Below, one piece after another: positions 21,138 to 52,108 of a stretch of 57,842 nt of DNA. The DNA lies in the IMG/VR virus record IMGVR_UViG_3300038856_000076, positions 1 to 57,842 of that record. One strand, written 5' to 3'. The position numbers and the translations under genes are program-made. Position 1 is the first letter of the stretch, and the number at the start of each line of letters is the position of its first letter. Under the pieces are notes generated by a model. The model did not search any database. It was given only the letters and a program-made list of their open reading frames with translations, and was not told the origin of the DNA. The stretch comes from a virus.

Positions 21138-22550
21138 TTAGCCAAGCATCACGACACCAAGATCGGTATCGAGAACAGCCACACCACACAACAGGTCAAG
21201 GGTCACTTGAGTACCCTGAGTTGCTAGGTTGTACTGCATCGAAACGCGCATCGAAATGTCATTATGGATGCCTACCTGTGAACGAACACCAAGATCAGTT
21301 GCTGGCATTGCCAACGGACGGTTCACCAAGGCGATTGCCTCACGGTGGAAACCGAAGTTGTAGCTACCGGCTGGACCTGGGAACACGGCCTGATCGTTGA
21401 TCACAGCCAATTCAAGTGGGCGATCCAAAAGGATGCTTTGCTCAGTAGACGAAACTACTTCGCTCTCGATGATGGTGTAAACACGACGGCTTGCACCAGT
21501 ACCGATAGCAACCAACTGGCCAACTTGCGGTGGCTTGCCGGTTGAGAAGGTGTCAACCTGCAATGGCTTATTTTCGCCGGCTGGGTAACCAGGACCATTG
21601 TCAATGGCACATGGCTTGTAGTAAGCTACTACAGCCGCATTGGTTGCAGCAACCAAACCACTGTCCAGAGTGATATCGTCGATATCAGCACCGGTATTAG
21701 TGAATGCAGTGATGTAATGCGGACGATTTTCGCCAGCAATTGTCACCCATTCACCACCGACAGCGTTTTCACCGAGCAGCGTGATGTCAATCAGCGTTGC
21801 ACCAGCAGCATCAGCACCAGCAGTTACGCCGAGAGTCACATCTGCATTCACTTGCTGAGTCGAAGGAACATTCTGGTCCATCCAGAAGTCAAAGCCCAGC
21901 AAACGGCCCAAGCTAGCCTCAGCTAGTGCGGTACCATCATCGCCACGCTCATTGGCCTTCAAGAACAGATCGGTCTGCAACAGTGAAGTTTCGCTTTGTG
22001 GCGAAACAACAATGTGACGACCATTGAAGAATGCCTTGTTCTCGTTCAACTTTTGGCGGGCAGCCAAGATAGTATCGCGGGCATTGCTGCCAGTCAAGGC
22101 TTCAAGACCACCAACGGCATTCACCAAGTAAGCATGCACGCGGCCCAAAATCGCACGGTCAACACCGCGAGCAACGTTCTGCATACCAGGAAGCAAGTGG
22201 GTATCCACCAAATCCTGGAAGGACTTTGTGGCTTCACCATCACGAATGGTGAAGTGAGTGTAAAGATGCTGGTCAAGAGGCACCCGAACATTGTTCGTGA
22301 TGGCATCTTGGCCCTGTACATCATCAGTATCGCCCTTACGACGAATCTTGAACTGGCCTGGACGACGGGTGTTCACCACGTCACCGAACTCAGCTACTTC
22401 ACGAGAGAAGTCACGGTGTACCAAAGCGGCAGCAACCATATTTTCTTCCAAAATAGCCAAGCCCATGTTGGACCAAACTTCAGGGATCAATGCATCGTTG
22501 TCGTTCACGAACAGTGATACGACAGCTTGCGAAAGATAAAGAGGGTTCAT
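21138..22550 (-). CDS. major capsid protein
   Basis: 470 aa. It is preceded by the scaffold gene and followed by a strong terminator. Confidence 0.65.
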   Translation of the reverse strand: MNPLYLSQAVVSLFVNDNDALIPEVWSNMGLAILEENMVAAALVHRDFSREVAEFGDVVNTRRPGQFKIRRKGDTDDVQGQDAITNNVRVPLDQHLYTHFTIRDGEATKSFQDLVDTHLLPGMQNVARGVDRAILGRVHAYLVNAVGGLEALTGSNARDTILAARQKLNENKAFFNGRHIVVSPQSETSLLQTDLFLKANERGDDGTALAEASLGRLLGFDFWMDQNVPSTQQVNADVTLGVTAGADAAGATLIDITLLGENAVGGEWVTIAGENRPHYITAFTNTGADIDDITLDSGLVAATNAAVVAYYKPCAIDNGPGYPAGENKPLQVDTFSTGKPPQVGQLVAIGTGASRRVYTIIESEVVSSTEQSILLDRPLELAVINDQAVFPGPAGSYNFGFHREAIALVNRPLAMPATDLGVRSQVGIHNDISMRVSMQYNLATQGTQVTLDLLCGVAVLDTDLGVVMLG

Positions 22551-22627
22551 CTCTTTTGAGTCTCCATGTGGAGTTAAATTTCAGTTGGAGCAACACACGT
22601 TGCTCGCAATAGTGGATTAGCCCCAAT

Positions 22628-23497
22628 TTAATAACGGCGAGATCGCTTTAGCCCTAACTTAGTTGGGTCTTCCTTGTAAAGCTTCATGAATTGCTCAGTG
22701 GTTAATTCTGAGGCATCAACACGACCGTCCGCGCCTGGCTGGACACCGCCAGTGGTGGAATTGCCACCCACACCTGAAACGACATTTGATTTGAACAGAT
22801 TGGGTTGCAATTCTTTCAACCGTTCAACCGCTTCTTGTGGGTTCCGCTGTGTGATGATTGGTTTACCCGTATCCGCATCAATATCGGGAAGGTCCACCAT
22901 CGGGACCAATCTGCCAGTTGCTTGACCACTCTCATCGGTGGCTTCCACTAGCTTGGTGTGCTTAATAAGCACATCCTGAATCTGCTGTGGCATGAATGCG
23001 TCATGTGACACAGCGGCGTCCATCAGAGATTTCTCGACAACGAACGTCTTGTACTCTTGCTCCCACTTGACAGCACGTGTTTTCCAGTCTTTCAACTCGT
23101 TTTCATGCTGCTCAAGAAGTTGCTTCTTTTCATGCTTGGCTTGTTCTTCCTTGGTACGGTGTTGTTTACGAAGGTCTTCAAGCTGCTGCTCAAGAGCATT
23201 ACGCTCCTCTTCGGACAAGCTTTGATTCCCAAGCAAATCTTGGTAAGACTTTTCGAGATTTTTGTACTTCTCCTCAGTCTTTTTTCGATCCTTAGCCAAG
23301 CGATCTTGTACGATCTTGTTTACTTGTTCCTGGTTGAAACGAGCATTGGGATCACTACTGATCGATGGGTCAGCATCATCGGTTAAATTGTTGTTCCCGC
23401 CTGGATTCAGATCAGCGGGTGGGTCGCCGGCATCATCATCACCTTCATAAAGTGACAGGACCGGAGTTGACAAGTAAAGAAGGTTCAAAAGTTTCAT
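22628..23497 (-). CDS. scaffolding protein
   Basis: 289 aa with an E/K/Q-rich coiled-coil composition (…EEKYKNLEKSYQDLL…EQQLEDLRKQHRTKEEQAKHEKKQLLEQHENELKDWK…). It sits between the portal and capsid genes. Confidence 0.6.
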   Translation of the reverse strand: MKLLNLLYLSTPVLSLYEGDDDAGDPPADLNPGGNNNLTDDADPSISSDPNARFNQEQVNKIVQDRLAKDRKKTEEKYKNLEKSYQDLLGNQSLSEEERNALEQQLEDLRKQHRTKEEQAKHEKKQLLEQHENELKDWKTRAVKWEQEYKTFVVEKSLMDAAVSHDAFMPQQIQDVLIKHTKLVEATDESGQATGRLVPMVDLPDIDADTGKPIITQRNPQEAVERLKELQPNLFKSNVVSGVGGNSTTGGVQPGADGRVDASELTTEQFMKLYKEDPTKLGLKRSRRY

Positions 23498-23598
23498 GGG
23501 TTTCTCCCAACAATAAACCCCACTGTGTTTATTCTGCTATGTACATCGCGGGTCCATATACACAGCCCTGCTGACCAGTGCAGTATTTTAGAGGGTCA

Positions 23599-24156
23599 TT
23601 AACTTATGCGAGTCAAAATAACTGCATCTTCATCACGTAAAAATGGTCGTAACCATCTCCACGCCAAAGCATTTGGAACATAGTTGATCAAATGTTCAAT
23701 TGGCACTTGATTACGATTATATGTTGTTCGTACCGAAGCATAACCATGAGAGATGATGCCGAGGTTTTCAAGTTCAAGTTCTGGGTCTTTACCATCCAGT
23801 AAGGAATGTGCAATTTCAAAGCATGCACATTTAATCGTATCCGGTACCTCACTGTCAGTCCCACGTGGAAATTCCAATGGTTGTGACAGTGAGGCTTGTT
23901 GAATTTGATCTTGCGTTACACAGCAATTCTCATATGCTGTTTGCAAATCAAGGTCACATCCATTTGCAACGAGTTCAGCATGGATTGTGGATTTCTGCCC
24001 TTTGAAATTTAGTGTGTCAATGATCCGTGTGGCATACATTAACGCCTTGGGTCGGTCGAGTACATCAGCATTTGACCATGCAAATTCATGCAAACGATTG
24101 TCGAAGTAGTCTTGTGCTTCTGTGAGCGTTCCATAGTAGGTATAGGTCAAAGACAT
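23599..24156 (-). CDS. hypothetical head morphogenesis protein
   Basis: 185-aa ORF whose start overlaps the portal stop (24156). Confidence 0.4.
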   Translation of the reverse strand: MSLTYTYYGTLTEAQDYFDNRLHEFAWSNADVLDRPKALMYATRIIDTLNFKGQKSTIHAELVANGCDLDLQTAYENCCVTQDQIQQASLSQPLEFPRGTDSEVPDTIKCACFEIAHSLLDGKDPELELENLGIISHGYASVRTTYNRNQVPIEHLINYVPNALAWRWLRPFLRDEDAVILTRIS

Positions 24157-26039
24157 TACTTAGACTCCCCTGTCTTTTGGCGGCGTTTACCACGTCCACG
24201 GACACGTCGTTTTCTATCAGGTTGCAGATCAGGATTTTGTGAATCCTTCTTTTCATCTGCGGCTTTCTTCGGTTCAGGATCAAGATCAGGATTCCCGCGT
24301 GCAGCAGCTTCACCCGGTTTATTTGGTGCAATGTCAGGAGACATTTGTGCTGCTTGTTGACGAGCAATTCGTGCTGCTTGGTCTTTTCGGGCTTTTTCAA
24401 CTTCACCTTCAGCAAAACCGAGTGCCAATGAGGCTGTTTCTTCGCCTGCCAAGCCTGCTTCAACTGCCCGGATCAAAATCTCAGGATCACTTGTAGTAAA
24501 GTTGGCTCTCTCAATTTCCAAATTGATTGCTTCAATCTTATCGACATTAACACGCCCAGATAGAAGAATTGCAATAAGATTCTTCCACATTTCCTTTCGT
24601 GCAATCTTCGATGGTGTGTTTGTGATTAGGTCAGCAAGGTCGCGTGCTTCTTGTACTCGCTGTGCGTCGTCCTTCAAGCTGTAACGGTCTGGGTACTTGA
24701 CAACAGCAACTTTACGCTTACGTGCGTTACTGTTCTCATACGAAGCCCAGAGGTCAGCGATGCGACGTTCAGCACTTTCGAGCACAAGGCCAATGAATGA
24801 CAATCCAGCTTCAAGCCCTTGGTTATCCATCTGCTTTGATTCAGCAGATGCCCGGCTGGCTAGTGTCATTATTGACAAGTTCATAAGCTTCCGAATGTCT
24901 GACTCAAGCTTCTCTTGAAGCTTCATCGACGCTTCAAGTGGCTCTGGCGATGGATGGATGAACTTAGGTCGATCTGCTTTGATATCATAAGCACGTCCTT
25001 GAGTTGGACCGACATTGATATCTCGCAAATGTGAAGGTTGTCCACCAGCTTGAGCACTGCCATCCGGTGCGGTTTGGTGCTTCAAATGGTCACCAACCCC
25101 ACGCATGTCTCGTTGTTCTGTGTAAAATGGGAAATTTGCTTTTAATGCATAACTCACATCACTTGACACAAGATTTAATAGGGCAATCTGGTGCTGGCAT
25201 ACATCTTGTAGTACACTCCCACCAATGTCTGGCATCACAAATGGAATACGTGTCAGATTCAATTGAACTGGCTCTGTAGATGGGTTACCATCTTTTGTCA
25301 CAGGATTGCCATCTCCATCCATAAACTGTAGATTAACAAGACCTGTCTTTTGGTTTATCCACAATAGACGGAAGCGTTCAAAAGTTGTCAGAGGCAACAA
25401 TGTGTCTTGATCAAAATCAACACAAGTATCACGTAACAACAATGATTGAAATTCACTTGGTTCTTCTGGCTTTGAACAACGCCACGACAAGATATCTTCT
25501 ACATGGTAGACATACAAGTAGGGTCGAAATCCATTGACATCTGCTAATGATGGTTCTAAACCGTCTTCACGTGCTACAGATGGACTGTCAACATATAAAC
25601 CAACACGACCCATGATAAGTAATTCAGTCAAAACATCCATGCCCATGAAAGCATTCATGGTGGAGCCACGCCGATCTACACCCAAGTCCAAACCTTGAAC
25701 GGCTCTGTTGTATGTTTCGCTACCATCACGACGAACGATGTCACGCATACGTTGGAAAATACTATTGCGAATATCGTTTACAGCGGATGCTGCGAATGTG
25801 GGAATCGGAGTGATTTGCTTTCTGTTAAGAAAATCTGTGTTGTTTTCTTGCTTACTGAATTTTTTAAGGTACTTACGCAGGAATCGATCTCCACCTTCAT
25901 ACGTTAATCTCCATTTCTGCCAGTCAATTTGACTTGCAAGGAAATTAGGATGACGGGAGTCAATAATACGACGTTGTCGCGTATTTGGATTATGGAGTTT
26001 ATTGCGGTTGAATTGATTTTCAGTCCCGGCCATTACCAA
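24156..26039 (-). CDS. portal protein
   Basis: 627 aa, directly downstream of the large terminase subunit. It has a basic, Lys/Arg-rich C-terminal tail. Confidence 0.6.
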   Translation of the reverse strand: MVMAGTENQFNRNKLHNPNTRQRRIIDSRHPNFLASQIDWQKWRLTYEGGDRFLRKYLKKFSKQENNTDFLNRKQITPIPTFAASAVNDIRNSIFQRMRDIVRRDGSETYNRAVQGLDLGVDRRGSTMNAFMGMDVLTELLIMGRVGLYVDSPSVAREDGLEPSLADVNGFRPYLYVYHVEDILSWRCSKPEEPSEFQSLLLRDTCVDFDQDTLLPLTTFERFRLLWINQKTGLVNLQFMDGDGNPVTKDGNPSTEPVQLNLTRIPFVMPDIGGSVLQDVCQHQIALLNLVSSDVSYALKANFPFYTEQRDMRGVGDHLKHQTAPDGSAQAGGQPSHLRDINVGPTQGRAYDIKADRPKFIHPSPEPLEASMKLQEKLESDIRKLMNLSIMTLASRASAESKQMDNQGLEAGLSFIGLVLESAERRIADLWASYENSNARKRKVAVVKYPDRYSLKDDAQRVQEARDLADLITNTPSKIARKEMWKNLIAILLSGRVNVDKIEAINLEIERANFTTSDPEILIRAVEAGLAGEETASLALGFAEGEVEKARKDQAARIARQQAAQMSPDIAPNKPGEAAARGNPDLDPEPKKAADEKKDSQNPDLQPDRKRRVRGRGKRRQKTGESK

Positions 26040-26048
26040 CTCCGACGA

Positions 26049-27725
26049 TTACAAGAATGATTTGATGTCTACACCACGTACATAGGATGCAGCAATAGGC
26101 AATGCGATTTCGCTGTAAACTTTTGCATGGGCATAGTGATCAGCACCTGTTTTGATATAGGTTGCAATCAAATTACCATGCTCATCTTTTTCATAGCTCC
26201 GAACCAGATTTTTCATGTGCTCTCTGTATTCTAAACTTGTGTCGCGTGGCAATGTGATTCGATTTTCAATATGGAAACGACCTAATCCGCAGTCAATCCA
26301 GTTTGTTCGATCTACAGTTGCCATTGGCACCCGCTCATGATCTTCAGTCAATTGAATTGACTTTTGAGGGACACCACGTCGATAGCGACACAAAGTTACA
26401 TAACCAGGAAAGCGTAATGCAAATCGGCGGGCTTCAAGTGTGTTTGGATCAGCATCAACAACGCAATGCAAAACTTGCCATTCTCGCATTAGTTCATCCA
26501 ACTTTCCCCAACCACCCTCGATTTGTGCGTTAAATTTACCATGAAAGACATTCTTACAAATCGCAATTACATTGATGTCTGGCCCGATTTCAGGAAGGAA
26601 CCATTCGTCAATGTTAAAATGCACCCAGTCACCTTGATCAGTACCCATTGTAATGAATCGTTCACCACCAATTGTGGGCCGATCATCTTCTCGGCTGTAT
26701 GATCGAACACAAGCATCGATTTTTGAATCGGTGACTTGACCACCTTCAGGGATGTAAGGCTGACCAACTTTGGACTTATAAAATTCTGACATAGCCCCTT
26801 CGTCACCCATGCCACGAAAATAAGCCGCAGCTACTTTTGATGGTGTGACAGTGAAACTATAAAGTTGGTTGATATTAAAACCTCGTTCATCCTTAGAAGC
26901 ATTCAAATCTGTTGGTTGCCAAAAACCATCGCCCAGAAAACTAGGCTTATCTTCATGATTTAACTTATTGTTGCACTCTGTGCATTTCAGATGTGACTTA
27001 TGTATATCAGGGTCATTGATGGCTTCACCACACAACTCAAATGATTCGGGCCACATAAGTTCAATCGACTTTGAGCAAGATGGACATTTGAAAAAGAAAT
27101 GCTCTTGAGTTGTCGTTTGATATAGTTTATGGATGCCTCGATTCGGCAAAGTTGGTGTGGAGATTGCCCAAATGTTCTGTGTCTTTTGACCGCTCAGTCG
27201 CTCAAACGCCAACCAAATCTGATCTTGATCCATTTCATCGACTTCGTCGAGAATTAGTTCTGACACAGGGATCGATTTTAGGTTACTATCACCACGACTA
27301 CCACGTATATACAGGGTCTGTGTGCCAGCTTGTTTCAAGTTCACTGTATTGATATCCGTGAACATCGATTTGATGTACGGCGAGTATTTCAATGCAGGAG
27401 CAAATCGAGACCGCGAAAAGTCACTGGCATTTAATGCCGTTGGTAGAACATACAATACATCACGTTGCAAAATGTCGAGAATAAAAAACGCTCTGTTGAT
27501 TCCAATTTCGGTGAAACCCATCTGGGCAGCTTTCATCGAAACATTCAGGCTCGCTTTTGAATCATGTGGGCCTTTTGCCCAAGGGTGGTACTTAAAACCA
27601 AAAGGTCCAGAAAAGTCGCCACCCATGACTCGGCGGGCTTCCGCCCATCGTGAGCAAGACGTTAGGGTCTTCGTCTTGATTCCCGACACCAGGGCTTCCC
27701 GAAGTTCATGAACTAGGTCACTCAT
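26049..27725 (-). CDS. terminase large subunit
   Basis: 558 aa, found in the terS-terL-portal gene order. An ATPase-like N-terminal half is followed by a nuclease-like C-terminal half. An internal Cys4 cluster is present (CPSCSKS…CTECNNK). Confidence 0.65.
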   Translation of the reverse strand: MSDLVHELREALVSGIKTKTLTSCSRWAEARRVMGGDFSGPFGFKYHPWAKGPHDSKASLNVSMKAAQMGFTEIGINRAFFILDILQRDVLYVLPTALNASDFSRSRFAPALKYSPYIKSMFTDINTVNLKQAGTQTLYIRGSRGDSNLKSIPVSELILDEVDEMDQDQIWLAFERLSGQKTQNIWAISTPTLPNRGIHKLYQTTTQEHFFFKCPSCSKSIELMWPESFELCGEAINDPDIHKSHLKCTECNNKLNHEDKPSFLGDGFWQPTDLNASKDERGFNINQLYSFTVTPSKVAAAYFRGMGDEGAMSEFYKSKVGQPYIPEGGQVTDSKIDACVRSYSREDDRPTIGGERFITMGTDQGDWVHFNIDEWFLPEIGPDINVIAICKNVFHGKFNAQIEGGWGKLDELMREWQVLHCVVDADPNTLEARRFALRFPGYVTLCRYRRGVPQKSIQLTEDHERVPMATVDRTNWIDCGLGRFHIENRITLPRDTSLEYREHMKNLVRSYEKDEHGNLIATYIKTGADHYAHAKVYSEIALPIAASYVRGVDIKSFL

Positions 27726-28716: not shown

Positions 28717-29061
28717 TTAGATGAGGAATGGAATGATGACTAACAACATCTTCACAATCGGAATGATGTTGTCAAGAATCCATTGATAAATTGCCGCCCA
28801 GTCCAACTCGTCAAAGAAGCCACGCACAGTACGTGGATTTTGACGGTAATAAAGACGAGCAACTCGACCACGCCAGATTCGATGCACAGGCACTGGTCGA
28901 GACCAGCCACCACGAGTATCATAACAAACTGGACCAGCATAAACTAGCTTGTCGTACAGTGAAATATCAGCGTTAGGGATCAACCCCTTTTGTTTTGCTT
29001 CAGCATAGGCACGTGTAATCACGTCGCCAAATTGCTTCAAGTTATTGACCTGTGAGATCAT
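28717..29061 (-). CDS. hypothetical protein with C-terminal TM helix
   Basis: 114 aa with a hydrophobic C-terminus (IIPIVKMLLVIIPFLI). Confidence 0.35.
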   Translation of the reverse strand: MISQVNNLKQFGDVITRAYAEAKQKGLIPNADISLYDKLVYAGPVCYDTRGGWSRPVPVHRIWRGRVARLYYRQNPRTVRGFFDELDWAAIYQWILDNIIPIVKMLLVIIPFLI

Positions 29062-29821
29062 AGTTTGTTGAATCCTTCTGCGGTTCGATTATCTTTTCGG
29101 GTTTAGACTCTTGTTCTTTGCGAGTCTTAGTCAAATATTGTTTGATACTATCAATGTATGTCACACCCGTGAAACGGACTTGTTCTTTACCGTTGTCCAT
29201 TACAACAGTCGTGGGCCATACAGACAAGCCAAACTTATCGGCCGTCTTTGGAAATTTATCAGTGTCTAAGTAGATGACGTAATAGCCTTCTCGCCGCAGT
29301 TGTTCAACTACAGGATACATTTGGGGACAATAATGACACCATTTGGCCCCAAATACAATGGCATAATTTTTCAAACAAAAGTCATCTTTGCAAACATATG
29401 GTGGGCATAGACAATCTTTCTCACATTTCTCGCACTTGTCACACTTGTCATCAGTAGAGACTTGCGTTGATTGTGTCCAACCAATTGGATGCTTCATACT
29501 TACTTGATTGCTTTTGATTTCCTTCCAAGTAATCGCTTTAACCACCCTTTCTTCTTGACTAAGGGCACTGTAGGCGTCGGGTCGGAGTTCACTGTAGACG
29601 TTTGGTTCAAGTCCATTGCGTCGTTCGCTATGTCCAAGATTTCGTCGGCTTTTGTTTTCCAATTGACTGGCTTCTTTGTACCAATCGAAATAAGAAGGGA
29701 CCGAAGCCACCGTTTCAGACGTAGCCACAACCCCAGCATTTGTATCTTGCTCATTGGCGAGACTCAGTGTCGGAATAAAAAGAACAAAGGCGATTACCAG
29801 TATACAAATTCGGTTCATCAT
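29042..29821 (-). CDS. secreted thioredoxin-fold protein (signal peptide, WCxxC)
   Basis: The start is set at MMNRICILVIAFVLFIPTLSLA (signal peptide). A Cys-rich linker (CDKCEKCEKDC) precedes a thioredoxin-like segment (FGAKWCHYCPQMYPVVEQL…). Confidence 0.55.
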   Translation of the reverse strand: MMNRICILVIAFVLFIPTLSLANEQDTNAGVVATSETVASVPSYFDWYKEASQLENKSRRNLGHSERRNGLEPNVYSELRPDAYSALSQEERVVKAITWKEIKSNQVSMKHPIGWTQSTQVSTDDKCDKCEKCEKDCLCPPYVCKDDFCLKNYAIVFGAKWCHYCPQMYPVVEQLRREGYYVIYLDTDKFPKTADKFGLSVWPTTVVMDNGKEQVRFTGVTYIDSIKQYLTKTRKEQESKPEKIIEPQKDSTNYDLTGQ

Positions 29822-29965
29822 CGTCTTCCCTCGGAGTGTTGGGTGTGACAATTAAGTTCCGGCTCAATTTAATCAAGCCTACATCGGCTCTACGTGTCCG
29901 ATATTGTTTCTTCCAATCATGTGCAAATGAAACCATCATTACCTCCATTCAAGTTCCCTCGGAGA

Positions 29966-31001: not shown

Positions 31002-31760
31002 TTATAGCGAATTGGCATACTCACGTAGTCCTTGGGCAACTTCTCTCCAAACTTGAGCGTGTGACTTGACATCAGAGAGTTGACCGGTTTCGGCCATTGC
31101 TTTCAATTCTTGCATCAACTCATTTAAGACAGGTGTCCAATGTGCGATGTTCCCATTCAAAGCTTCTCGATTCGAGGTAGCGGTGGCTTGAACTAATTCA
31201 GAGGCACTACTAAACGAGTCTTGCTCAATAATGATAGCAACAGAGGCGAATGATTGGGCCAGCTTTAATGCGTCATCGCGTTTTGTGGGTGACTGAACAT
31301 CCTCACACCACTCTTGTACTTTGCCAACGATGTTCTCACCGGGATGTAATGGTGGACCAGTATCGGCACCATAGACTTTGATTTCGTGTGTCTTGATATT
31401 TGAGTCACCAGCCAATGCACATGAGACAATGAACAAGTATGTTACATTCTTGTCGCCAGTACCACAGACGATTGTCTTCCCGTCATTAAAGACGCGAAGT
31501 CCAGGTGGTTCAGGAATGACCTTGTAATCGAACCCTGCTCCGATGCTTTCGGACAGATCAATGACAATCATATCACCAATCTTAACTTTGTCAGGTGCTT
31601 TGATGACAACTTCAGCTTTATCTGTGCGCGGCGTACCGTCATCGGTATCACCAATTACTGCTCGCATGGTTGATGCAGCCGTACCGTTGTTGCTGCAAGC
31701 TACAAAAGCGAGACTTACCATAACCATCAAAACGGCAATGGAATGTACCAATCTTTTCAT
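31002..31760 (-). CDS. lipoprotein (hypothetical)
   Basis: The start is set at MKRLVHSIAVLMVMVSLAFVACS, a signal peptide plus lipobox Cys. Length is 252 aa. Confidence 0.5.
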   Translation of the reverse strand: MKRLVHSIAVLMVMVSLAFVACSNNGTAASTMRAVIGDTDDGTPRTDKAEVVIKAPDKVKIGDMIVIDLSESIGAGFDYKVIPEPPGLRVFNDGKTIVCGTGDKNVTYLFIVSCALAGDSNIKTHEIKVYGADTGPPLHPGENIVGKVQEWCEDVQSPTKRDDALKLAQSFASVAIIIEQDSFSSASELVQATATSNREALNGNIAHWTPVLNELMQELKAMAETGQLSDVKSHAQVWREVAQGLREYANSL

Positions 31761-31932
31761 GTTGATCTCCCTCGTATTGTGTTGTAGACCGGTCAATTAC
31801 TTTGGCAATTCGCGTGGATTACGAGGCAACAATTTTTCATTGACACGTCCTGATCGTTCAGCGGTCGCTCGACCTTGGCTTGCCTGTCGATCCGGGGTCG
31901 GACTCAGACGCTTGCCTTGGTAAGCAGGTTTG

Positions 31933-32894: not shown

Positions 32895-33185
32895 CTATTT
32901 CACGGTGACAGGTTGATTGGTCACAAATCGCAGAGCGATATTGACCACACCCATAACAGTTGCAGCAATCGCCGCCCACTGTGGATTTGCCTGAATGAGA
33001 TCACTTCCTGATAGTGCTGCTACAACGCCAGCGATGGCAGTGATCGCGTTTGCCCAGAAAGTCTTCGATTGTAGAATGGGCTTCCCGTTCATGTTGTTCT
33101 CCTGTGGTTGAGGTTCATTAGGTTTCGGTTGAGGATTAACCGAATCACCATCGCCGGGTACAAGGTCATCATACGGATTACTCAT
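32895..33185 (-). CDS. holin-like small membrane protein
   Basis: 96 aa with two predicted TM helices (FWANAITAIAGVVAALSG; WAAIAATVMGVVNIALRFV) after a P/Q-rich N-terminus. Confidence 0.35.
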   Translation of the reverse strand: MSNPYDDLVPGDGDSVNPQPKPNEPQPQENNMNGKPILQSKTFWANAITAIAGVVAALSGSDLIQANPQWAAIAATVMGVVNIALRFVTNQPVTVK

Positions 33186-33845: not shown

Positions 33846-33896
33846 CCTAATTTTGGGCTCAGATGGGTTGACAAGTCGCCCAAATTAGGTCATACT
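33846..33896 (+). promoter_or_regulatory. sigma70-like promoter embedded in an inverted-repeat operator
   Basis: TTGACA (33868-33873), a 17-nt spacer, then CATACT. It is flanked by the inverted repeat CCTAATTTTGGGC (33846-33858) / GCCCAAATTAGG (33878-33889). A second TTGACA lies at 33904. It sits in the divergent intergenic region ahead of the + strand accessory operon. Confidence 0.45.
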
Positions 33897-33935
33897 AATA
33901 ATTGACAATTCGTTTCTACACGCTAGGATAGTGGT

Positions 33936-34166
33936 ATGCGACAACTGCGAATCATTACGAAGACGCCCGACACTGAACAAGTGATGCTTGAGCCGGGTGT
34001 GCATGGGGCTCTGTACAACATCCCTGAAGTGCGTGAAGCAAGGGACGTAATCGAGAAGAATCCAGCCATTGAAATGCTCGGCATTCGGATTGGTGCCCGT
34101 TACTATTCTCTGGTTGTATCTCATGAAGATACACTGCAACCCCAACATTTTCAGCTAGATGAATGA
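33936..34166 (+). CDS. hypothetical protein (first + strand accessory gene)
   Basis: 76-aa ORF that starts ~40 nt after the promoter. Its stop overlaps the next start. Confidence 0.4.
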   Translation: MRQLRIITKTPDTEQVMLEPGVHGALYNIPEVREARDVIEKNPAIEMLGIRIGARYYSLVVSHEDTLQPQHFQLDE

Positions 34167-34488
34167 AATTGAATGGCGTGATGTGCCAGGGTACCCTGGA
34201 TATGAAGCTTCTACATTTGGGAGTATTGTCGGATTCAAAGGCCAATTGAAACCATGTTTGAATCGTAAGACAGGTTACTTGCAACTCCGTCTTTATCGTC
34301 ATGGTGTTCCCACAACTCTAACTGTACACCAAGTCATTGCAATGACATTCCTCGGACCTTGCCCACCAGGGAAAGAAGTGTTGCACGGTCCACTAGGAAA
34401 GCAATTCAATGGTGTTAAGAATCTGCGATATGGGACTCGATCTGAAAATATGACACAATACTGGGAAGAGAAACATGGCCAATACTGA
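34159..34488 (+). CDS. HNH homing endonuclease (NUMOD4 + HNH_3)
   Basis: The NUMOD4 motif IEWRDVPGYPGYEAS is near the N-terminus. The HNH core is HQVIAMTFLGP…LHGPLGKQFNGVKNLRYGTRSEN. Confidence 0.7.
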   Translation: MNEIEWRDVPGYPGYEASTFGSIVGFKGQLKPCLNRKTGYLQLRLYRHGVPTTLTVHQVIAMTFLGPCPPGKEVLHGPLGKQFNGVKNLRYGTRSENMTQYWEEKHGQY

Positions 34489-34657
34489 TCTTGATGGTTC
34501 TCCTATGTTAATTTTGAGTTACGCCGAAGCGAAAATATTGAATGATGCTCTTGACAGTCTTGGTTTTGACAGCAATAATAGTCGTGTAAAGTATAAGCTT
34601 GAATCTTTTCTGAATGACCCTCGTTGTATAGAATGGGAGAACAAATGTCACACATGA
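34475..34657 (+). CDS. hypothetical small protein
   Basis: 60-aa ORF overlapping its neighbours. Confidence 0.3.
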   Translation: MANTDLDGSPMLILSYAEAKILNDALDSLGFDSNNSRVKYKLESFLNDPRCIEWENKCHT

Positions 34658-34854
34658 TCTATGATGATTACGACGAGTATGAAGAAAATGATCTTGAATG
34701 GGGTGATTATGGCTTCGATGACGATGACGATGACTTCGAGGACGAGGAGGTCTACGACGAGATGTCAGATTGGGAAGGCGATGACTGGGAAGATGATTTC
34801 GATGATGACTACGAGGAAGATTTCAATGATGAGGTTGAAAACGGTTGGCTATAA
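34624..34854 (+). CDS. hyper-acidic D/E-rich small protein (possible DNA mimic)
   Basis: 76 aa, of which more than 50% are D/E with interspersed aromatics (DDYDEYEENDLEWGDYGFDDDDDDFEDEEVYDEMSDWEGDDWEDDFDDDYEEDFNDE). An alternative start lies at 34645. Confidence 0.4.
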   Translation: MYRMGEQMSHMIYDDYDEYEENDLEWGDYGFDDDDDDFEDEEVYDEMSDWEGDDWEDDFDDDYEEDFNDEVENGWL

Positions 34855-35162: not shown

Positions 35163-35445
35163 CTCTAAAACAGGGTACACCAAAATTTTGGAGGTTGAAC
35201 ACAACTTCCCGCACCAAACGGTAATGCGTCCACCCGGTGGTGGTAAAGGTCTCGTGAATGTAGTCGATGGTGTCCCACAGCCACATGCTTGTGTCACTGA
35301 TGTTACCAAATATGATGATGTGTGGCAAGTGACGGTTGGTGATGGGTATTTTATGATCACACTACGTGATCCAAAGCGTTGGTCATACGTTATGGGTGAT
35401 ATCGGATTAGTTATCGCCCGACACATCAATCAGGAGAAAATATAA
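35149..35445 (+). CDS. hypothetical protein
   Basis: 98-aa ORF. Its stop overlaps the next start. Confidence 0.35.
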   Translation: MKWHDSKTGYTKILEVEHNFPHQTVMRPPGGGKGLVNVVDGVPQPHACVTDVTKYDDVWQVTVGDGYFMITLRDPKRWSYVMGDIGLVIARHINQEKI

Positions 35446-35780
35446 TGGGTTGGGCGTCTGGTAGCATGCTTGCAGAAGACGTGTGGGAGATTGTGCGACC
35501 ACATGTCGCATGTGGGCAGCGACGTAAAGTCGCTCGTAAAATTTGGGAAGCATTCGAGTCAATGGACTGTGATACATTAGACGAAGCAGAGCAATTACAA
35601 AAGGATGCTGGCTACGATTACTTTGAATTCTACAAAATGGATGATAACGAAGATGAGTGCAACAAATTTAATTGCCACCAAAAAGCTGAGTATATTGGTA
35701 GTTTAACAGAGAGTCGAACTGTCCAAACATGCTCTAAACACGTTGATGACCTTGAAAACTATGAGGAGATCGGAGAATGA
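35445..35780 (+). CDS. hypothetical protein
   Basis: 111-aa ORF. A GGAG RBS lies upstream and ATGA start/stop coupling is present. Confidence 0.4.
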   Translation: MGWASGSMLAEDVWEIVRPHVACGQRRKVARKIWEAFESMDCDTLDEAEQLQKDAGYDYFEFYKMDDNEDECNKFNCHQKAEYIGSLTESRTVQTCSKHVDDLENYEEIGE

Positions 35781-36469
35781 TCGATCAGATACGCCATAGC
35801 CTATGCATAGGGTTAATACTGCAACTGTGTCTAGCAGCGACTGGGTATACACAAACGATTGCTAAGTCGAGCGTTCGCGTCTATGTCTTCGATGATAGTG
35901 ATAAGTTCTATGACTCAATGGGCTCGGGGACTCTTCTAACGCCCACGCAGGTAATCACAAATTACCATGTCATCAAAGATCGACACAAAGATGATTCAAT
36001 TGAGATTCGATTCTATGATGGCGAACGACGACAAGCTAAAGTTCAAGCCGAAGACAAGGTTTGGGATTTAGCCCTCTTGCAAATTGAGCCTTACCCTAAA
36101 GTCACTCCTCCTCCCATTGGTCGATTACCTAGCAAAGGCGACCATCTGTATATTGCTGGGTTCGGACAGGACTATGAGTACAAAGTCCAAAAGGGTGTAC
36201 TAGAAGGCTATTATGCCCCGAAGACAGGTATGGATGGTGGATGGATGAAGATTGATAATACTGGTGCTCGAAATGGCGACAGTGGTGGCCCAATCAGCAA
36301 CACAGCAGGTCAATGGGTGGGAACATTGTTTGGTTCAATTCAAGAGGGCGATATTCACACCTATGGGACACACGTAAGTCGAATCAAGATTGTCTTTGGT
36401 GACAAGATCAAACTCGGGTCGCCATATGATAATTACATTTTATCGGAGGAGAAACCAGATGGCAAGTGA
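35777..36469 (+). CDS. secreted trypsin-like (S1) serine protease
   Basis: An N-terminal signal peptide is present. The catalytic triad contexts are TNYHVI (His), DLALLQI (Asp) and GDSGGP (Ser). Confidence 0.7.
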   Translation: MIDQIRHSLCIGLILQLCLAATGYTQTIAKSSVRVYVFDDSDKFYDSMGSGTLLTPTQVITNYHVIKDRHKDDSIEIRFYDGERRQAKVQAEDKVWDLALLQIEPYPKVTPPPIGRLPSKGDHLYIAGFGQDYEYKVQKGVLEGYYAPKTGMDGGWMKIDNTGARNGDSGGPISNTAGQWVGTLFGSIQEGDIHTYGTHVSRIKIVFGDKIKLGSPYDNYILSEEKPDGK

Positions 36470-36692
36470 CAGCTACGAAATGATTAAATGGGTACCTTTT
36501 ACGGAGCAGAAACCACCGTTGAACACAACTATTTTGATCTTTGGACCTGGACCCGGTGTGCATTTTGCCAAAGTATTGGATGGACACCTTGATGTTAATG
36601 TGGTTGGCTATTTTTCACATTGGGCTCCTCGACCAATTGGCGTATCAAAGCCGCAAGGTTGGATTGATTGGCTCGTTTCATTCGTGAGGTAA
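36459..36692 (+). CDS. hypothetical protein
   Basis: The start is moved to ATG at 36459 (MASDSYEM…), with GGAGGAG 8 nt upstream. Length is 77 aa. Confidence 0.4.
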   Translation: MASDSYEMIKWVPFTEQKPPLNTTILIFGPGPGVHFAKVLDGHLDVNVVGYFSHWAPRPIGVSKPQGWIDWLVSFVR

Positions 36693-36943: not shown

Positions 36944-37428
36944 TGTTACAGCAGTTATACACAGTATCGTTGCTTATAAAACGCGATGATAAACCTGTTT
37001 TTCCGTGGACAGGCTTTTTTGGATATAAGCCTTGGAAAGAGAAAATCTGTGAAGCCCTGAGATCAGAAGGCCATGAATATGCTGCTAGAGTCGTCGAATT
37101 ATGGGATGGCAAGACGGATTCGATTTATTTTGCAAACAATCTCATACTTGGGACAATCAAAATCGAAGAAGGTAAGAAATTGTACGACCAGAGTTATGAT
37201 ATCCATCTGACTCATACCAATCGACAAATTGTCGCACAGTGGCAAGATGATGAAGGCAATATTATCTGTGACACAAACAAATGTCCCACAGGATATGGCG
37301 TCACTGTATTAGAAGCAATTGGCAGCTTAGTATTGGGCACCATCAATACACATTTAATCGAAAATTCCAACGATATTCTGTCGCAACACTTTTCAATTTT
37401 TGTACCAAAATACACGGGGCATGCATGA
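36943..37428 (+). CDS. hypothetical protein
   Basis: 161-aa ORF. Its stop overlaps the next start (ATGA). Confidence 0.45.
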   Translation: MLQQLYTVSLLIKRDDKPVFPWTGFFGYKPWKEKICEALRSEGHEYAARVVELWDGKTDSIYFANNLILGTIKIEEGKKLYDQSYDIHLTHTNRQIVAQWQDDEGNIICDTNKCPTGYGVTVLEAIGSLVLGTINTHLIENSNDILSQHFSIFVPKYTGHA

Positions 37429-37856
37429 AGATTTACATCGCCGGCCCGTTATTTACCCAAGCAGAACGTCAATGGAATGCTAAACTTGCATCCGCACTAC
37501 GTCAACGATGCACGGCTGAAATTGCTTTGCCACAAGACTTTTGTCGGGGGACAACATCTTCTAAGGTAATGTTTTCTCGTTGCCTTTCTGAATTGACTAC
37601 ATCTCAAGCAGTAGTTCTCAATGCTGATGGTGCTGATGTTGATGCAGGAAGTGCATTTGAAGCGGGTGTTGCTCACCAATTAGGGATTCAATTGGTTAGT
37701 TATCGTACAGACCTTCGTCGGGCTGGTGATTCAGAGTTTGATGTGAATCTTATGCTAGCTCATGCAGGTGCATTCTTGAATTGTCATGGCGACACAGTTG
37801 ATACAGTTGCTTCTAAACTTCTAAAAGAAATCAGAACAAATTACATTGGATACTAA
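37425..37856 (+). CDS. nucleoside 2-deoxyribosyltransferase-like (NDT/DNPH1 superfamily) protein
   Basis: The start is set at MKIYIAGPLF, the hallmark N-terminal motif of the family. A DAGSAFEAGVA segment corresponds to the family's DxGTxxExG motif. Length is 143 aa. Confidence 0.6.
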   Translation: MKIYIAGPLFTQAERQWNAKLASALRQRCTAEIALPQDFCRGTTSSKVMFSRCLSELTTSQAVVLNADGADVDAGSAFEAGVAHQLGIQLVSYRTDLRRAGDSEFDVNLMLAHAGAFLNCHGDTVDTVASKLLKEIRTNYIGY

Positions 37857-49244: not shown

Positions 49245-49509
49245 ATTCATCTTGTACCGTTTGTGGTGGCTTGGTCGGCGACCCCGTATCGTGTCGAAGC
49301 ATATAGGACGTTATGTCCGAGTTCAAATGGATCACAATGTGATTGATGGTATCGTTGTTGCTGTATATGGACCAAATAATTTTCTGTTTTATGCCATTGA
49401 TTCAATAGCACACGGAAATCTACATTGTGATCCATCACGACATTATCCGACCCATCTCGGCTACTTTGTGGCACGGGAACGAGGATTACCGCACAGGCGA
49501 TGCCGATGA
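49237..49509 (+). CDS. hypothetical protein
   Basis: The start is moved to ATG at 49237 (MFRFILYRLWW…). AGAGGAGGA lies 9 nt upstream. Confidence 0.4.
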   Translation: MFRFILYRLWWLGRRPRIVSKHIGRYVRVQMDHNVIDGIVVAVYGPNNFLFYAIDSIAHGNLHCDPSRHYPTHLGYFVARERGLPHRRCR

Positions 49510-50330
49510 TTCTTGATCTGGACGATAATCCCGTTGACACAATCATCAAAGGTGAAGAGTACAAAGTCCCTTGCGTAAATGGACTTCCTGTAGTGTTACC
49601 TTCGCATGTGGATGAAGGTACTGATGGAAAGACGGCACGTCACTGGCATGTGGATAGGCGGTGGGGTGATACGATGCGACCCTTGGAGTTGTTTTGTCGT
49701 CGTACTGAGCAGCACGTAGGTGGTCGCCAATCATTACAACATAACCTTGATGTGGCGATTGTCAAGGATCAAGGCGAACCCATTGAGTACAACATTCTAC
49801 GGGCTCAATGCACAAATGTCATTGCCACAGGCCAGTTATTCTCTTCGTTGGCCTATCTGTATTTGAAACATGGTACCGAGACATCTAAAGATGGGTTCTG
49901 TGTCCATCACCGTACTCAATTGCAATTTGATACACATCATTCTTGTATGACATGTCCCGCACATGGTCTACGATACAACCGTGACAGTACACCTTTCTAC
50001 AAAGCTCCGTTCTTTGTAAAATTGGCAATCGATCATGTGCTTATGGAGTCTTGTGAATTAACTTCAATGAAGCTCCGATTCCATATGAGTGAGGACATTG
50101 AAATGACAGACTATACTCTGTATTTGATGGACTCGAATGAAAAGATAATTGCATTTTGCGACAATTCAATGCCCTCTCCAATAACACTATCCAAAGATGA
50201 CCATTTTGTAGTCACATTCGGAGCATGGCCATCGTCTGACTTTTGTCCAAGCTTTGCACACAAGTCCGAAGAATGCGAGCAGCCAGTGGAATTTGAAATT
50301 GACATTGAATACAGCTACTTGCCTAACTGA
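49506..50330 (+). CDS. Rieske [2Fe-2S]-like protein, paralog 2
   Basis: CVHHRTQL…(15 aa)…CPAHGLRY. The blocks VLPSHVDEGTDGKTARHWHVDRRWG and AWPSSDFCPSF are shared with paralogs 1 and 3. The start is ATGA-coupled at 49506. Confidence 0.55.
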   Translation: MILDLDDNPVDTIIKGEEYKVPCVNGLPVVLPSHVDEGTDGKTARHWHVDRRWGDTMRPLELFCRRTEQHVGGRQSLQHNLDVAIVKDQGEPIEYNILRAQCTNVIATGQLFSSLAYLYLKHGTETSKDGFCVHHRTQLQFDTHHSCMTCPAHGLRYNRDSTPFYKAPFFVKLAIDHVLMESCELTSMKLRFHMSEDIEMTDYTLYLMDSNEKIIAFCDNSMPSPITLSKDDHFVVTFGAWPSSDFCPSFAHKSEECEQPVEFEIDIEYSYLPN

Positions 50331-51036: not shown

Positions 51037-51368
51037 TCCAACGAGGCATATATTGCGGTGAAGAGGAACAATTTCGTGGTCGCATTGCAAATATCTGCAT
51101 CAATGGTGAGTATCTGCGGGCTCAATTTGACAAGGGCAAGTTGTGGGAAACCCACAGTCGGTTGGCTTTTCACACCAATGACTGGAAAGTGATTGAAGAT
51201 GATATTGAAGAGGATGATACTCCTCTTTCTTATCCTGCTAAACGTGAACTTTCTTCCAAAGGACTCTTGTGCTTCTTTGGTTTGTATGCTATATTTGTAG
51301 TAGTGTTGACTTTCGTTATTGGGTTGATGTATCAAAGTTCTGTTGCAGGCTGGCTATTCGGCCAATGA
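51033..51368 (+). CDS. hypothetical protein with C-terminal TM helix
   Basis: The start is moved to ATG at 51033 (MIQRGIYCGEE…). This gives an ATGA overlap, with GAGGAG upstream. Confidence 0.45.
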   Translation: MIQRGIYCGEEEQFRGRIANICINGEYLRAQFDKGKLWETHSRLAFHTNDWKVIEDDIEEDDTPLSYPAKRELSSKGLLCFFGLYAIFVVVLTFVIGLMYQSSVAGWLFGQ

Positions 51369-52108
51369 TCAAAACACTTGAAGGAAAACCGACCGACTGT
51401 GTTCTTGCAGGCTACGATTATTTGGTACCGGCAGTACGAGGAATCCCCGTCGTTGTGCCTTCACATGTTGATGAGGGCAATGATGGTAAAACTTCTCGAC
51501 ATTGGCACGTGGATACACGTTGGGGTAATTCATCAAAGCCTAAGCATTATTGGAATAATGAAACCATTGAAAAATTTCAAGTCCACGATGATCTATGGAC
51601 TTTGATTCTTCGGGACGACGGACAGTCTATTGAGTATGAGCGTTTCACTGCCGAAAAATCCTTCATTTGGCCCACGGGAAGTGCTTGGTCGAGTCTCGTA
51701 TGGCTTTATTATCATTTGGGCGATCTACCTGCCAATAATGGATACTGTGTGCATCACCACACTCGCCTTGACAAATGGGAAGATGAATTGGTCTGCCCGT
51801 CGCACGGCATGCGATTCAAAGCCGATGGGTCACCGCGATTTCAAGGTCCCTTCTTTGTTCAGCTAACTTATGGTGACGCTGTCTCTAAAGTACCGGTCAC
51901 ATTTGATCATGAGTTAGAAATTCCTTTCTCAGTCAAAGTTGAAACACGGGCTCGATTGCAATTGATTGATTCTAATCAGGAAATAGTTGTTGAATCATGT
52001 GATTACATTTTGCTGCCACCTGACGGCGAGTCCTACCTGATTGAAATTATTGCTTGGCCCTCGGATATAAATTGTCCTGCTTTTGCAGAGGAATATTCAA
52101 GACCATGA
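51365..52108 (+). CDS. Rieske [2Fe-2S]-like protein, paralog 3
   Basis: The start is moved to ATG at 51365 (MIKTLEGKP…, ATGA-coupled). CVHHHTRL…(13 aa)…CPSHGMRF. The blocks VVPSHVDEGNDGKTSRHWHVDTRWG and AWPSDINCPAF are shared with paralogs 1 and 2. Confidence 0.55.
   Translation: MIKTLEGKPTDCVLAGYDYLVPAVRGIPVVVPSHVDEGNDGKTSRHWHVDTRWGNSSKPKHYWNNETIEKFQVHDDLWTLILRDDGQSIEYERFTAEKSFIWPTGSAWSSLVWLYYHLGDLPANNGYCVHHHTRLDKWEDELVCPSHGMRFKADGSPRFQGPFFVQLTYGDAVSKVPVTFDHELEIPFSVKVETRARLQLIDSNQEIVVESCDYILLPPDGESYLIEIIAWPSDINCPAFAEEYSRP

Follow-up and report, generated by a model that had tools for sequence, protein, structure and literature searches.

The HtrA-type protease DegS is itself anchored by its N-terminus and carries an inhibitory PDZ domain, deletion of which leads to signal-independent cleavage. 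Among phage-borne enzymes, exfoliative toxin A (ETA) is a chymotrypsin-fold protein made with a signal peptide and falls into the glutamyl-endopeptidase branch (S1B) and not into S1C; it is a lysogenic-conversion toxin that acts on the animal protein desmoglein-1 and comes from a Gram-positive host. A published account describes ETA, from Staphylococcus aureus, as a secreted serine protease borne by a temperate phage (PMC6841975). Here, we consider a gene for a serine protease on a stretch of viral DNA of 57,842 nucleotides, positions 1 to 57,842 of the IMG/VR record IMGVR_UViG_3300038856_000076 (the window, by which we mean this whole stretch), which is part of a 129.5-kb metagenome contig of a tailed phage. 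We propose, with a probability of about 0.7 that covers molecular identity and general mechanism, that the gene encodes a host-derived S1C protease that is exported and would act in the periplasm. The features of the gene and of its product are the following.

35777..36469, + strand: protease gene, with an ATG start, 230 codons and a TGA stop (open reading frame list and independent gene call)
35777..35851, + strand: predicted export signal, residues 1 to about 21-25 (heuristics, AlphaFold2 helix 2-20 and the signals of the family)
35870..36406, + strand: S1C (Trypsin_2) protease domain, residues about 32-210 (Pfam, AlphaFold2 and Foldseek)
35966..35968, + strand: codon of catalytic His64 in TNYHVI (residues 61-66), aligned to the catalytic His of HtrA2
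36065..36067, + strand: codon of catalytic Asp97 in WDLALL (DLALL being residues 97-101), aligned to HtrA2
36281..36283, + strand: codon of catalytic Ser169 in ARNGDSGGP, with the oxyanion-hole glycines (GDSGGP being residues 167-172), aligned to HtrA2
36407..36466, + strand: C-terminal tail, residues 211-230 (DKIKLGSPYDNYILSEEKPDGK), with a predicted local distance difference test score (pLDDT) of 50-60

An independent gene call on the source contig matches this reading frame (L001, 10001-10693), and a protein identical to the window protease (P0001) was recovered from the 129.5-kb ENA contig and from a Logan contig. The motifs TNYHVI, DLALL and GDSGGP, in which an earlier, sequence-only reading of the window had recognised a complete S1 catalytic triad, are found at the triad positions: H64, D97 and S169 superpose in sequence alignments on the catalytic residues of HtrA2 and DegS and are unchanged across the 32-member alignment of the family, and ARxGDSGGP is almost invariant among the phage and planctomycetal relatives. 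Pfam Trypsin_2 matches the protein at 76.8 bits (E 3.8e-21, gathering cut-off 27.6, envelope residues 49-182) and Pfam Trypsin at 36.3 bits against a cut-off of 20.6 (E 6.9e-9), the PHROGs matches are phrog_9683 ('protease') and phrog_11383 (E about 1e-9), and, when solved structures are searched by sequence, the protease domains of HtrA2, DegS, MucD, DegQ and HhoA come out on top (E from 3e-7). Two relatives carry the Joint Genome Institute (JGI) name 'S1-C subfamily serine protease'. The triad and the Trypsin_2 assignment are far beyond chance expectation. The best NCBIfam matches are partial and concern MarP, Do-family, HtrA and DegS models. All the NCBIfam equivalog models that were matched (DegS, DegP, DegQ, HtrA and MarP) lie far under their curated cut-offs, with overall scores of 30-46 bits against cut-offs of 250-750, the best being MarP (46.4 bits, cut-off 250) and DegS reaching 34.3 bits (cut-off 423). 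The Pfam scan of the window protease gave no PDZ domain, and the protein stops about 20 residues past the protease domain.

Taken from these matches, the window protease is best classed as an S1C (HtrA/DegS-type) domain that nevertheless falls outside the named NCBIfam equivalogs. The term 'trypsin-like serine protease' used in the sequence-only reading is borne out by Pfam, the alignments and the structural model as far as the chymotrypsin fold and the complete triad are concerned, but the subfamily is S1C (HtrA/DegS-like) and not trypsin proper. The alignments show an intact S1C catalytic domain, under purifying selection, in several phage lineages, and the window protease would be expected to be proteolytically active.

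An AlphaFold2 model built from the 32-sequence family alignment (pLDDT 90.6, predicted template modelling score 0.83, domain residues with pLDDT >90) begins with a detached helix (residues 2-20), followed by a core rich in strands (32-199) and, at the C-terminus, by a helix (200-210) and a tail of low confidence; the strand-rich fold is compatible with the pair of beta-barrels in the DegS protease domain. Using Foldseek against the PDB, PDZ-deleted DegS (2r3u) came first (E 1.2e-13, target template modelling score 0.79), with the S1C domain of the anti-sigma factor RsgI9, DegP, plant Deg1 and HTRA1 in the next ranks; the Foldseek probability was 1.00 for the DegS, DegP and HTRA1 protease domains, and these scores do not tell S1C members apart. 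The short tail, predicted to be disordered, appears to stand where the cellular homologues carry a long linker and a membrane anchor, and contains an x-Y-x-L motif common to several clade members in the alignment. Tails of the phage clade share x-N-Y-(I/L)-L, and the longer members also have Q-L-R-x-D-P-x-G-x-F (alignment A2), which resembles D-P-F-(Q/L) in the planctomycetal linker (L021, L037, L049 and L089); a docking or autoregulatory peptide is a possible function of these motifs.

Signal peptides were judged by heuristics (hydrophobicity, charge of the n-region and small-x-small sites). The N-terminus MIDQIRHSLCIGLILQLCLAATGYTQT has a hydrophobic core with a 10-residue Kyte-Doolittle mean of 2.53; MIDQIR forms the n-region and SLCIGLILQLCLAA the h-region, and candidate signal-peptidase sites follow A20, A21, G23 or T25 (CLA/AT, LAA/TG and ATG/YT, where a slash marks the cut, as below). 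Judged in this way, only a few of the 102 candidate reading frames of the window have a comparable N-terminal hydrophobic segment, and the hydrophobicity scan of the window reading frames gave no second such segment in the protease, which ends at residue 230. The N-terminal hydrophobic core is present in 32/32 relatives, 31 of which have K or R in the n-region; within this 32-sequence alignment, clear signals are found in the syntenic clade members L003, L016 and L017, and signal peptides were also found in homologues translated from contigs L004, L005 and L007 and in both L019 copies. The signal segment varies in sequence across the family and retains its character, with textbook examples in MKNLLCIVALLFFPTFVVA/QT, MKTILILLLLASAAFS/QTP and MKAVFFLLALLVVTPALA/QH. 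A lipoprotein signal was considered and rejected, the residues before C10 (HSL/C) and C18 (LQL/C) forming no lipobox. We strongly infer that the window protease is exported; that its signal would be cleaved, rather than kept as a signal-anchor, is less certain than export. The N-terminal signal peptide announced by the sequence-only reading is in this way upheld as a hydrophobic segment, both by heuristics and by the family, and makes export probable.

As for the origin of the gene, we scanned one genome per species (185,579 species) and confirmed 526 relatives, the best 80 of which were characterised by taxonomy. These best 80 of 526 are all Planctomycetota (80/80), 31-41% identical over nearly the whole phage protein including the signal region, and fall mostly into Pirellulales, Thermoguttaceae and Planctomycetaceae, with the cultured Botrimarina and Lacipirellula among them. 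In the exhaustive HMMER search, the nearest long homologues are about 45% identical over the domain, one of them being labelled Thermoguttaceae. The planctomycetal homologues have about 320-430 aa and no PDZ domain; their signal peptide and Trypsin_2 domain are followed by about 130-200 aa of linker rich in Pro, Ala and Ser and, at the C-terminus, by a transmembrane helix. The conserved neighbours of the cellular homologue, considered for hints of its function, are only of the housekeeping kind or Ser/Thr kinases, with threonine dehydratase, HemD/CobA and a HAD hydrolase among the former. A rough neighbour-joining tree groups the cellular proteins in one tight clade, with the short phage forms outside on long branches. 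Among the relatives of the phage deformylase, those that carry an organism label are all Gemmataceae (Planctomycetota). With moderate confidence, we take the host of the phage to be a planctomycete, and we further conclude that the phage protease is a trimmed derivative of the tethered periplasmic protease of the host lineage, from which linker and anchor have been lost.

Searching the deposited phages with the protease by tblastn gave nothing at E<=1e-5 and weak matches at E<=1 in only 8/50,697 phage records. Only two close proteins were found among 5.8 billion clustered sequences, and the exhaustive HMMER search gave 5,207 relatives, 6 of them with E<1e-30. Fold matches in BFVD include an 'HtrA protease' of Rhizobium phage AF3 (229 aa) and a 'periplasmic serine protease' of Podoviridae sp., and Brevundimonas jumbo phages encode a 'trypsin-like peptidase'. 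The sequence-only reading had considered such a protease rare for tailed phages, which agrees with the tblastn results but has to be tempered by the existence of two PHROG families and of these BFVD fold matches. Alignment A3 served for the scan of viral contigs and alignment A4 for the genome scan; the family-wide alignments A2 and A3 were rejected as queries for a locus scan, being too diverse.

At least six diverged phages (the window, L003, L004, L005, L016 and L017) carry the gene at one and the same place in the operon, with 37-44% identity between the proteases and conservation of the triad. All close relatives whose context was fetched share one layout: a GpA terminase, a leftward block, a divergence of transcription, and a rightward operon with the protease about 2 kb from its start and a deformylase after it. 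The homologue of L005 (7995-8786) has GSSGGP in place of GDSGGP, and that of L009 (679-1767, 362 aa), on a high-GC viral contig, has collagen-like GPxG repeats after the protease domain. Two further, unrelated phage-like lineages encode more distant, secreted forms, again beside genes of replication: L019 has two protease paralogues near DNA polymerase A, ligase and methylase genes, and in L007 the homologue is flanked by a ParB-like gene and a DNA polymerase. In L019 (10001-10672, 12085-12729 and 16067-16735), besides the two secreted Trypsin_2 paralogues, genes are found for a Peptidase_M50 and for a protein with an RF-1 domain. Homing-endonuclease-type genes surround the protease, with a NUMOD4/HNH gene in the window (34159-34488, + strand) and several in L003 and L016, and suggest a route for lateral spread of the protease region. 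An AP2-like gene beside the protease is 56% identical between two unrelated lineages (L003, 7055-7786; L019, 11501-12100).

The role that we propose for the exported, host-derived protease is as follows. The pre-protein would consist of a Sec-type signal, one S1C endopeptidase domain (His64-Asp97-Ser169) and a short disordered tail, and would be transcribed together with the rightward non-structural genes of a phage of about 130 kb. It would then be exported to the host periplasm, a compartment that is enlarged in planctomycetes, where, having neither PDZ gate nor membrane tether, it could diffuse freely and cut host envelope or periplasmic proteins during infection. Because the PDZ domain of DegS is inhibitory, a PDZ-less enzyme of the DegS fold need not await an activating signal. 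The protease lies beside early or replication genes in three lineages, which favours a time of action earlier than lysis. Of two other proteins directed to the envelope, one (29042-29851, - strand) has a thioredoxin fold and a classic signal peptide (MMNRICILVIAFVLFIPTLSLA/NE), and the other (31002-31796, - strand) is lipoprotein-like (MKRLVHSIAVLMVMVSLAFVA/C) and conserved in the clade (55-67% identity in L003, L004 and L005); the phage therefore does place proteins in the envelope, and these genes suggest that it invests in this compartment.

Removal of a receptor or surface protein could result in superinfection exclusion and spare the progeny adsorption to debris; alternatively, the enzyme could take over periplasmic proteolysis. 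The processing of envelope proteins or receptors and superinfection exclusion had already been suggested by the sequence-only reading as possible functions, and they compete with other roles. The timing of expression and the substrates are presumptive. When the possible purposes are ranked, envelope remodelling or receptor removal comes first as the most likely, a host-maintenance or nutrient role second, and lysis or the hijack of regulated proteolysis are minor candidates; even the first we put forward only tentatively as the specific purpose. More speculative again, and in our opinion doubtful, is the general idea that phages of Planctomycetota have repeatedly captured and untethered a host periplasmic protease as an early diffusible envelope effector, either receptor-destroying and responsible for superinfection exclusion or acting as an ungated site-1 protease that forces an envelope-stress/extracytoplasmic function (ECF)-sigma programme; one lineage (L019) pairs such proteases with a phage Peptidase_M50 protease of the site-2 type.

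Several observations weigh against the main proposal of an exported, host-derived protease acting in the periplasm. By the heuristics, the window signal departs further from the canonical pattern than any other in the family: its n-region, with a single R and a single D, is net neutral, a Gln interrupts its h-region, and it might serve as an uncleaved, DegS-like signal-anchor tethering the protease. The patterns of the genome scan came from an alignment already holding planctomycetal sequences, which biases the scan, these sequences being themselves the top matches of the unbiased HMMER search; the presumed host is uncultured and assigned by inference. Across the clade, the conserved leftward genes are 51-68% identical and the rightward accessory genes are about as diverged as the protease, the divergence of which does not exceed that of other accessory genes and carries no specific arms-race signal. 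Apart from homing-endonuclease-type genes, no partner or substrate gene is kept with the protease across the unrelated lineages, and no evidence sets receptor removal apart from proteostasis, nutrient or lysis roles.

The alternative that survives best, although we consider it unlikely, is that the protease maintains the host by supplying periplasmic quality control, or by digesting periplasmic or internalised proteins for amino acids. Such a role would suit a gene derived from a vertically inherited host protease with a housekeeping context, and the deformylase of the same operon forms a proteostasis theme together with the exported thioredoxin-fold protein. It is placed second among the purposes because planctomycetes, according to a review of the phylum, have an enlarged periplasm where internalised macromolecules appear to be degraded (PMC12673574). 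The loss of anchor and linker, however, favours a changed function over a replacement, and the duplication in L019, the high divergence and the lack of a chaperone-type PDZ domain also speak against host maintenance.

A difference of topology, rather than of purpose, would follow if the N-terminal segment stayed uncleaved and tethered the protease to the cytoplasmic membrane, facing the periplasm as in DegS, the precedent for N-terminal anchoring. The n-region has no strong positive charge, there is no clean A-x-A at the cleavage position aligned with the family (GYT/QT), and the cellular parent is membrane-tethered, though through its C-terminus. We nevertheless regard this topology as rather improbable: the core counts only about 14 residues, few for a stable transmembrane helix, and is interrupted by Gln; sites with the canonical small residues are present at 20/21 (CLA/A and LAA/T), and the close relatives all have textbook cleavable signals.

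The surroundings of the gene are as follows. Transcription diverges at about 33.8-33.9 kb, with a strand switch between 33775 (-) and 33936 (+), and the protease is approximately the eighth gene of a densely packed rightward array, which also encodes the NUMOD4/HNH endonuclease, a nucleoside 2-deoxyribosyltransferase, a peptide deformylase and Rieske proteins. The elements next to the protease and the structural genes of the window are listed below.

33868..33929, + strand: two sigma-70-like promoter matches (TTGACA-17-CATACT and TTGACA-16-TAGGAT), by consensus only; planctomycetal rules may differ
35445..35780, + strand: upstream gene of 111 aa, with no Pfam match and a weak phrog_11183 match
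35763..35776, + strand: Shine-Dalgarno-like GAGGAG (35763-35768) and GGAGA (35772-35776), read from the sequence
36459..36692, + strand: downstream gene of 77 aa, with no signal peptide and no domain match, beginning 11 nt before the protease stop
26049-27725, - strand: GpA-type large terminase
24156-26039, - strand: portal
22628-23497, - strand: scaffold
21138-22550, - strand: major capsid protein, 470 aa
12765-16523, - strand: tape measure

The promoter matches precede the first rightward gene (33936) and are weak evidence for a candidate promoter of the protease operon. The TGA of the upstream gene overlaps the ATG of the protease (ATGA), which suggests that the two may be translationally coupled, and the downstream 77-aa gene also adjoins the protease in L003 (51% identity) and L004 (40%). 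The gene had been placed by the sequence-only reading in an accessory operon, which corresponds well to this co-directional, packed and non-structural array with its ATGA overlap upstream and its 11-nt overlap downstream. Domain and PHROG scans recognised no prohead protease in the head module (21138-27725, - strand), where the reading frame between portal and scaffold is adaptor-like (Ad1-like adaptor/DnaT_2 match). A scaffolding protein is encoded, and scaffold-only heads such as those of P22 and T7 need no protease, which counts against a capsid role for the window protease. No integrase, repressor, Peptidase_M50, lysin, spanin or endolysin was detected in the window. There is no near relative among cultured phages: a megablast of the 12 kb around the gene gave no nucleotide match in deposited phages, and TerL identity is at most 26%.

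Other genes of the window deserve mention for themselves. Membrane proteins are encoded near the protease, e.g. at 32895-33185, and a very acidic protein of 69 aa (MSHMIYDDYDEYEENDLEWGDYGFDDDDDDFEDEE...; 34645-34854, + strand) is reminiscent, by its composition, of DNA-mimic anti-restriction proteins. The nucleoside 2-deoxyribosyltransferase and the peptide deformylase are encoded a short way downstream, at 37428-37856 and 37856-38404 (+ strand). Pfam matches elsewhere in the window comprise a dATP/dGTP diphosphohydrolase N-terminal domain, SPFH/Band_7, YunG, HAD_SAK_2 and RNase_T; together with the deoxyribosyltransferase, this set of domains may be a sign that nucleotides are metabolised, or the DNA modified, in an unusual way. 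Major vault protein domains, unusual in a phage genome, are matched by a protein of about 812-819 aa (42221-44680, + strand), namely MVP_shoulder (E 1.7e-25) and Vault_3 (E 4.4e-11); this protein has no PHROG match. Three Rieske [2Fe-2S] paralogues (39224-39976, 49500-50330 and 51269-52108, + strand) are 38-52% identical to the single copy of L003.

With respect to lysis, the protease could be an accessory that cuts envelope tethers, such as proteins linking the outer membrane to peptidoglycan, so that the outer membrane yields. The probably periplasmic location, the lack of a recognised spanin or endolysin in the window and the nearby membrane proteins (e.g. 32895-33185) would fit, but the gene stands with early or replication-type genes in all three lineages and has no lysis gene adjacent to it. 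We know of no precedent for an exported protease as a lysis accessory and consider this role improbable.

No more credible is a hijack of host signalling, in which a free, DegS-like site-1 protease would clip an anti-sigma factor or a membrane regulator of the host and trigger regulated intramembrane proteolysis. The top structural matches, PDZ-deleted DegS and the S1C domain of RsgI9, point in this direction, as do the signal independence of PDZ-less DegS and the presence in L019 of two such proteases plus a Peptidase_M50. The Foldseek scores, however, do not part DegS from DegP or HtrA, the NCBIfam DegS models are far under their cut-offs, and the window has no M50 gene, the association with M50 being seen in one contig only.

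Highly improbable, in our judgement, is an exoprotease of lysogenic conversion that would benefit the bacterium in the manner of ETA, e.g. by extracellular protein foraging. ETA, as the account cited above describes it, gives the example of a secreted serine protease on a temperate phage (PMC6841975), and our inspection covered part of the 129.5-kb contig. Against this, the window is without detected integrase or repressor, the best 80 of the 526 genome loci are all of the cellular type (31-41% identity; those examined have a C-terminal extension and a chromosomal setting) with no prophage copy of the phage-type gene among them, and the gene sits in an overlapping operon and not as a moron with its own signals.

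Finally, capsid (prohead) maturation or another virion-associated function, although suggested by the missing canonical prohead protease between portal and major capsid protein and by a paper that assumes a capsid role for the 'periplasmic serine proteases' of marine phage satellites (PMC9618062), is very unlikely: every relative keeps the export signal, the protein is of periplasmic descent, about 8 kb and a change of strand separate the gene from the head genes, and Pfam and PHROGs show no likeness to the prohead-protease families (HK97-type and ClpP/S49-type). The sequence-only reading had likewise set the protein apart from capsid-maturation proteases, and this agrees with Pfam and PHROGs, which give only trypsin-type families, and with the head genes (21138-27725) on the - strand. 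As no prohead protease could be recognised among the head genes, it is the export signal and the periplasmic descent that support this distinction, and not the presence of another protease.

As an enzyme, the protein is of an ordinary class, and databases already contain annotated phage genes of a similar kind. In our literature search, no work on the function of an exported S1C protease encoded by a phage was found, nor on that of the annotated phage counterparts. If the proposed reading is true, export of a host-derived protease to the periplasm by a phage would be documented, and with it a little-explored class of effectors acting outside the cytoplasm. The viruses of Planctomycetota appear to be very little studied: the literature search gave a single phage, of a cultured deep-sea strain (PMC10945688), and a 2025 review of the phylum has only one mention of phage genes (PMC12673574). 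The gene would then be a marker of host linkage and an entry to the biology of the enlarged periplasm of planctomycetes, and the compact (about 185 aa), PDZ-less S1C family would be of use for enzymology.

Compared with known systems, the window protease resembles DegS and the HtrA family (DegP, DegQ and HtrA2; MEROPS S1C) in fold, in catalytic apparatus and, as predicted for the window, in envelope targeting. It differs from this family by the lack of the PDZ domain that defines HtrA regulation and chaperone function, by a much smaller mature domain (about 185 aa), by being phage-encoded and by scores under the equivalog cut-offs. Like ETA, it is a phage-borne and presumably secreted serine protease; ETA is absent from its best sequence and structure matches. 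The annotated phage Trypsin_2 proteins (PHROG 9683, PHROG 11383 and the BFVD and Brevundimonas entries named above) are also stand-alone chymotrypsin-fold proteins of similar size from tailed phages, but only remotely related, with E about 1e-9 for the PHROGs, 0.3-0.8 by tblastn and 17-22% identity in structural alignments. The nearest cellular kin are the tethered Trypsin_2 proteases of planctomycetes, as in Botrimarina hoheduenensis Pla111 (L037) and Lacipirellula limnantheis I41 (L097): the phage protein is without their linker and anchor and ends about 20 residues past the protease domain, whereas ARxGDSGGP, G-x-(L/W)-x-G-x-LFG and the lack of a PDZ domain are common to the planctomycetal and phage forms.

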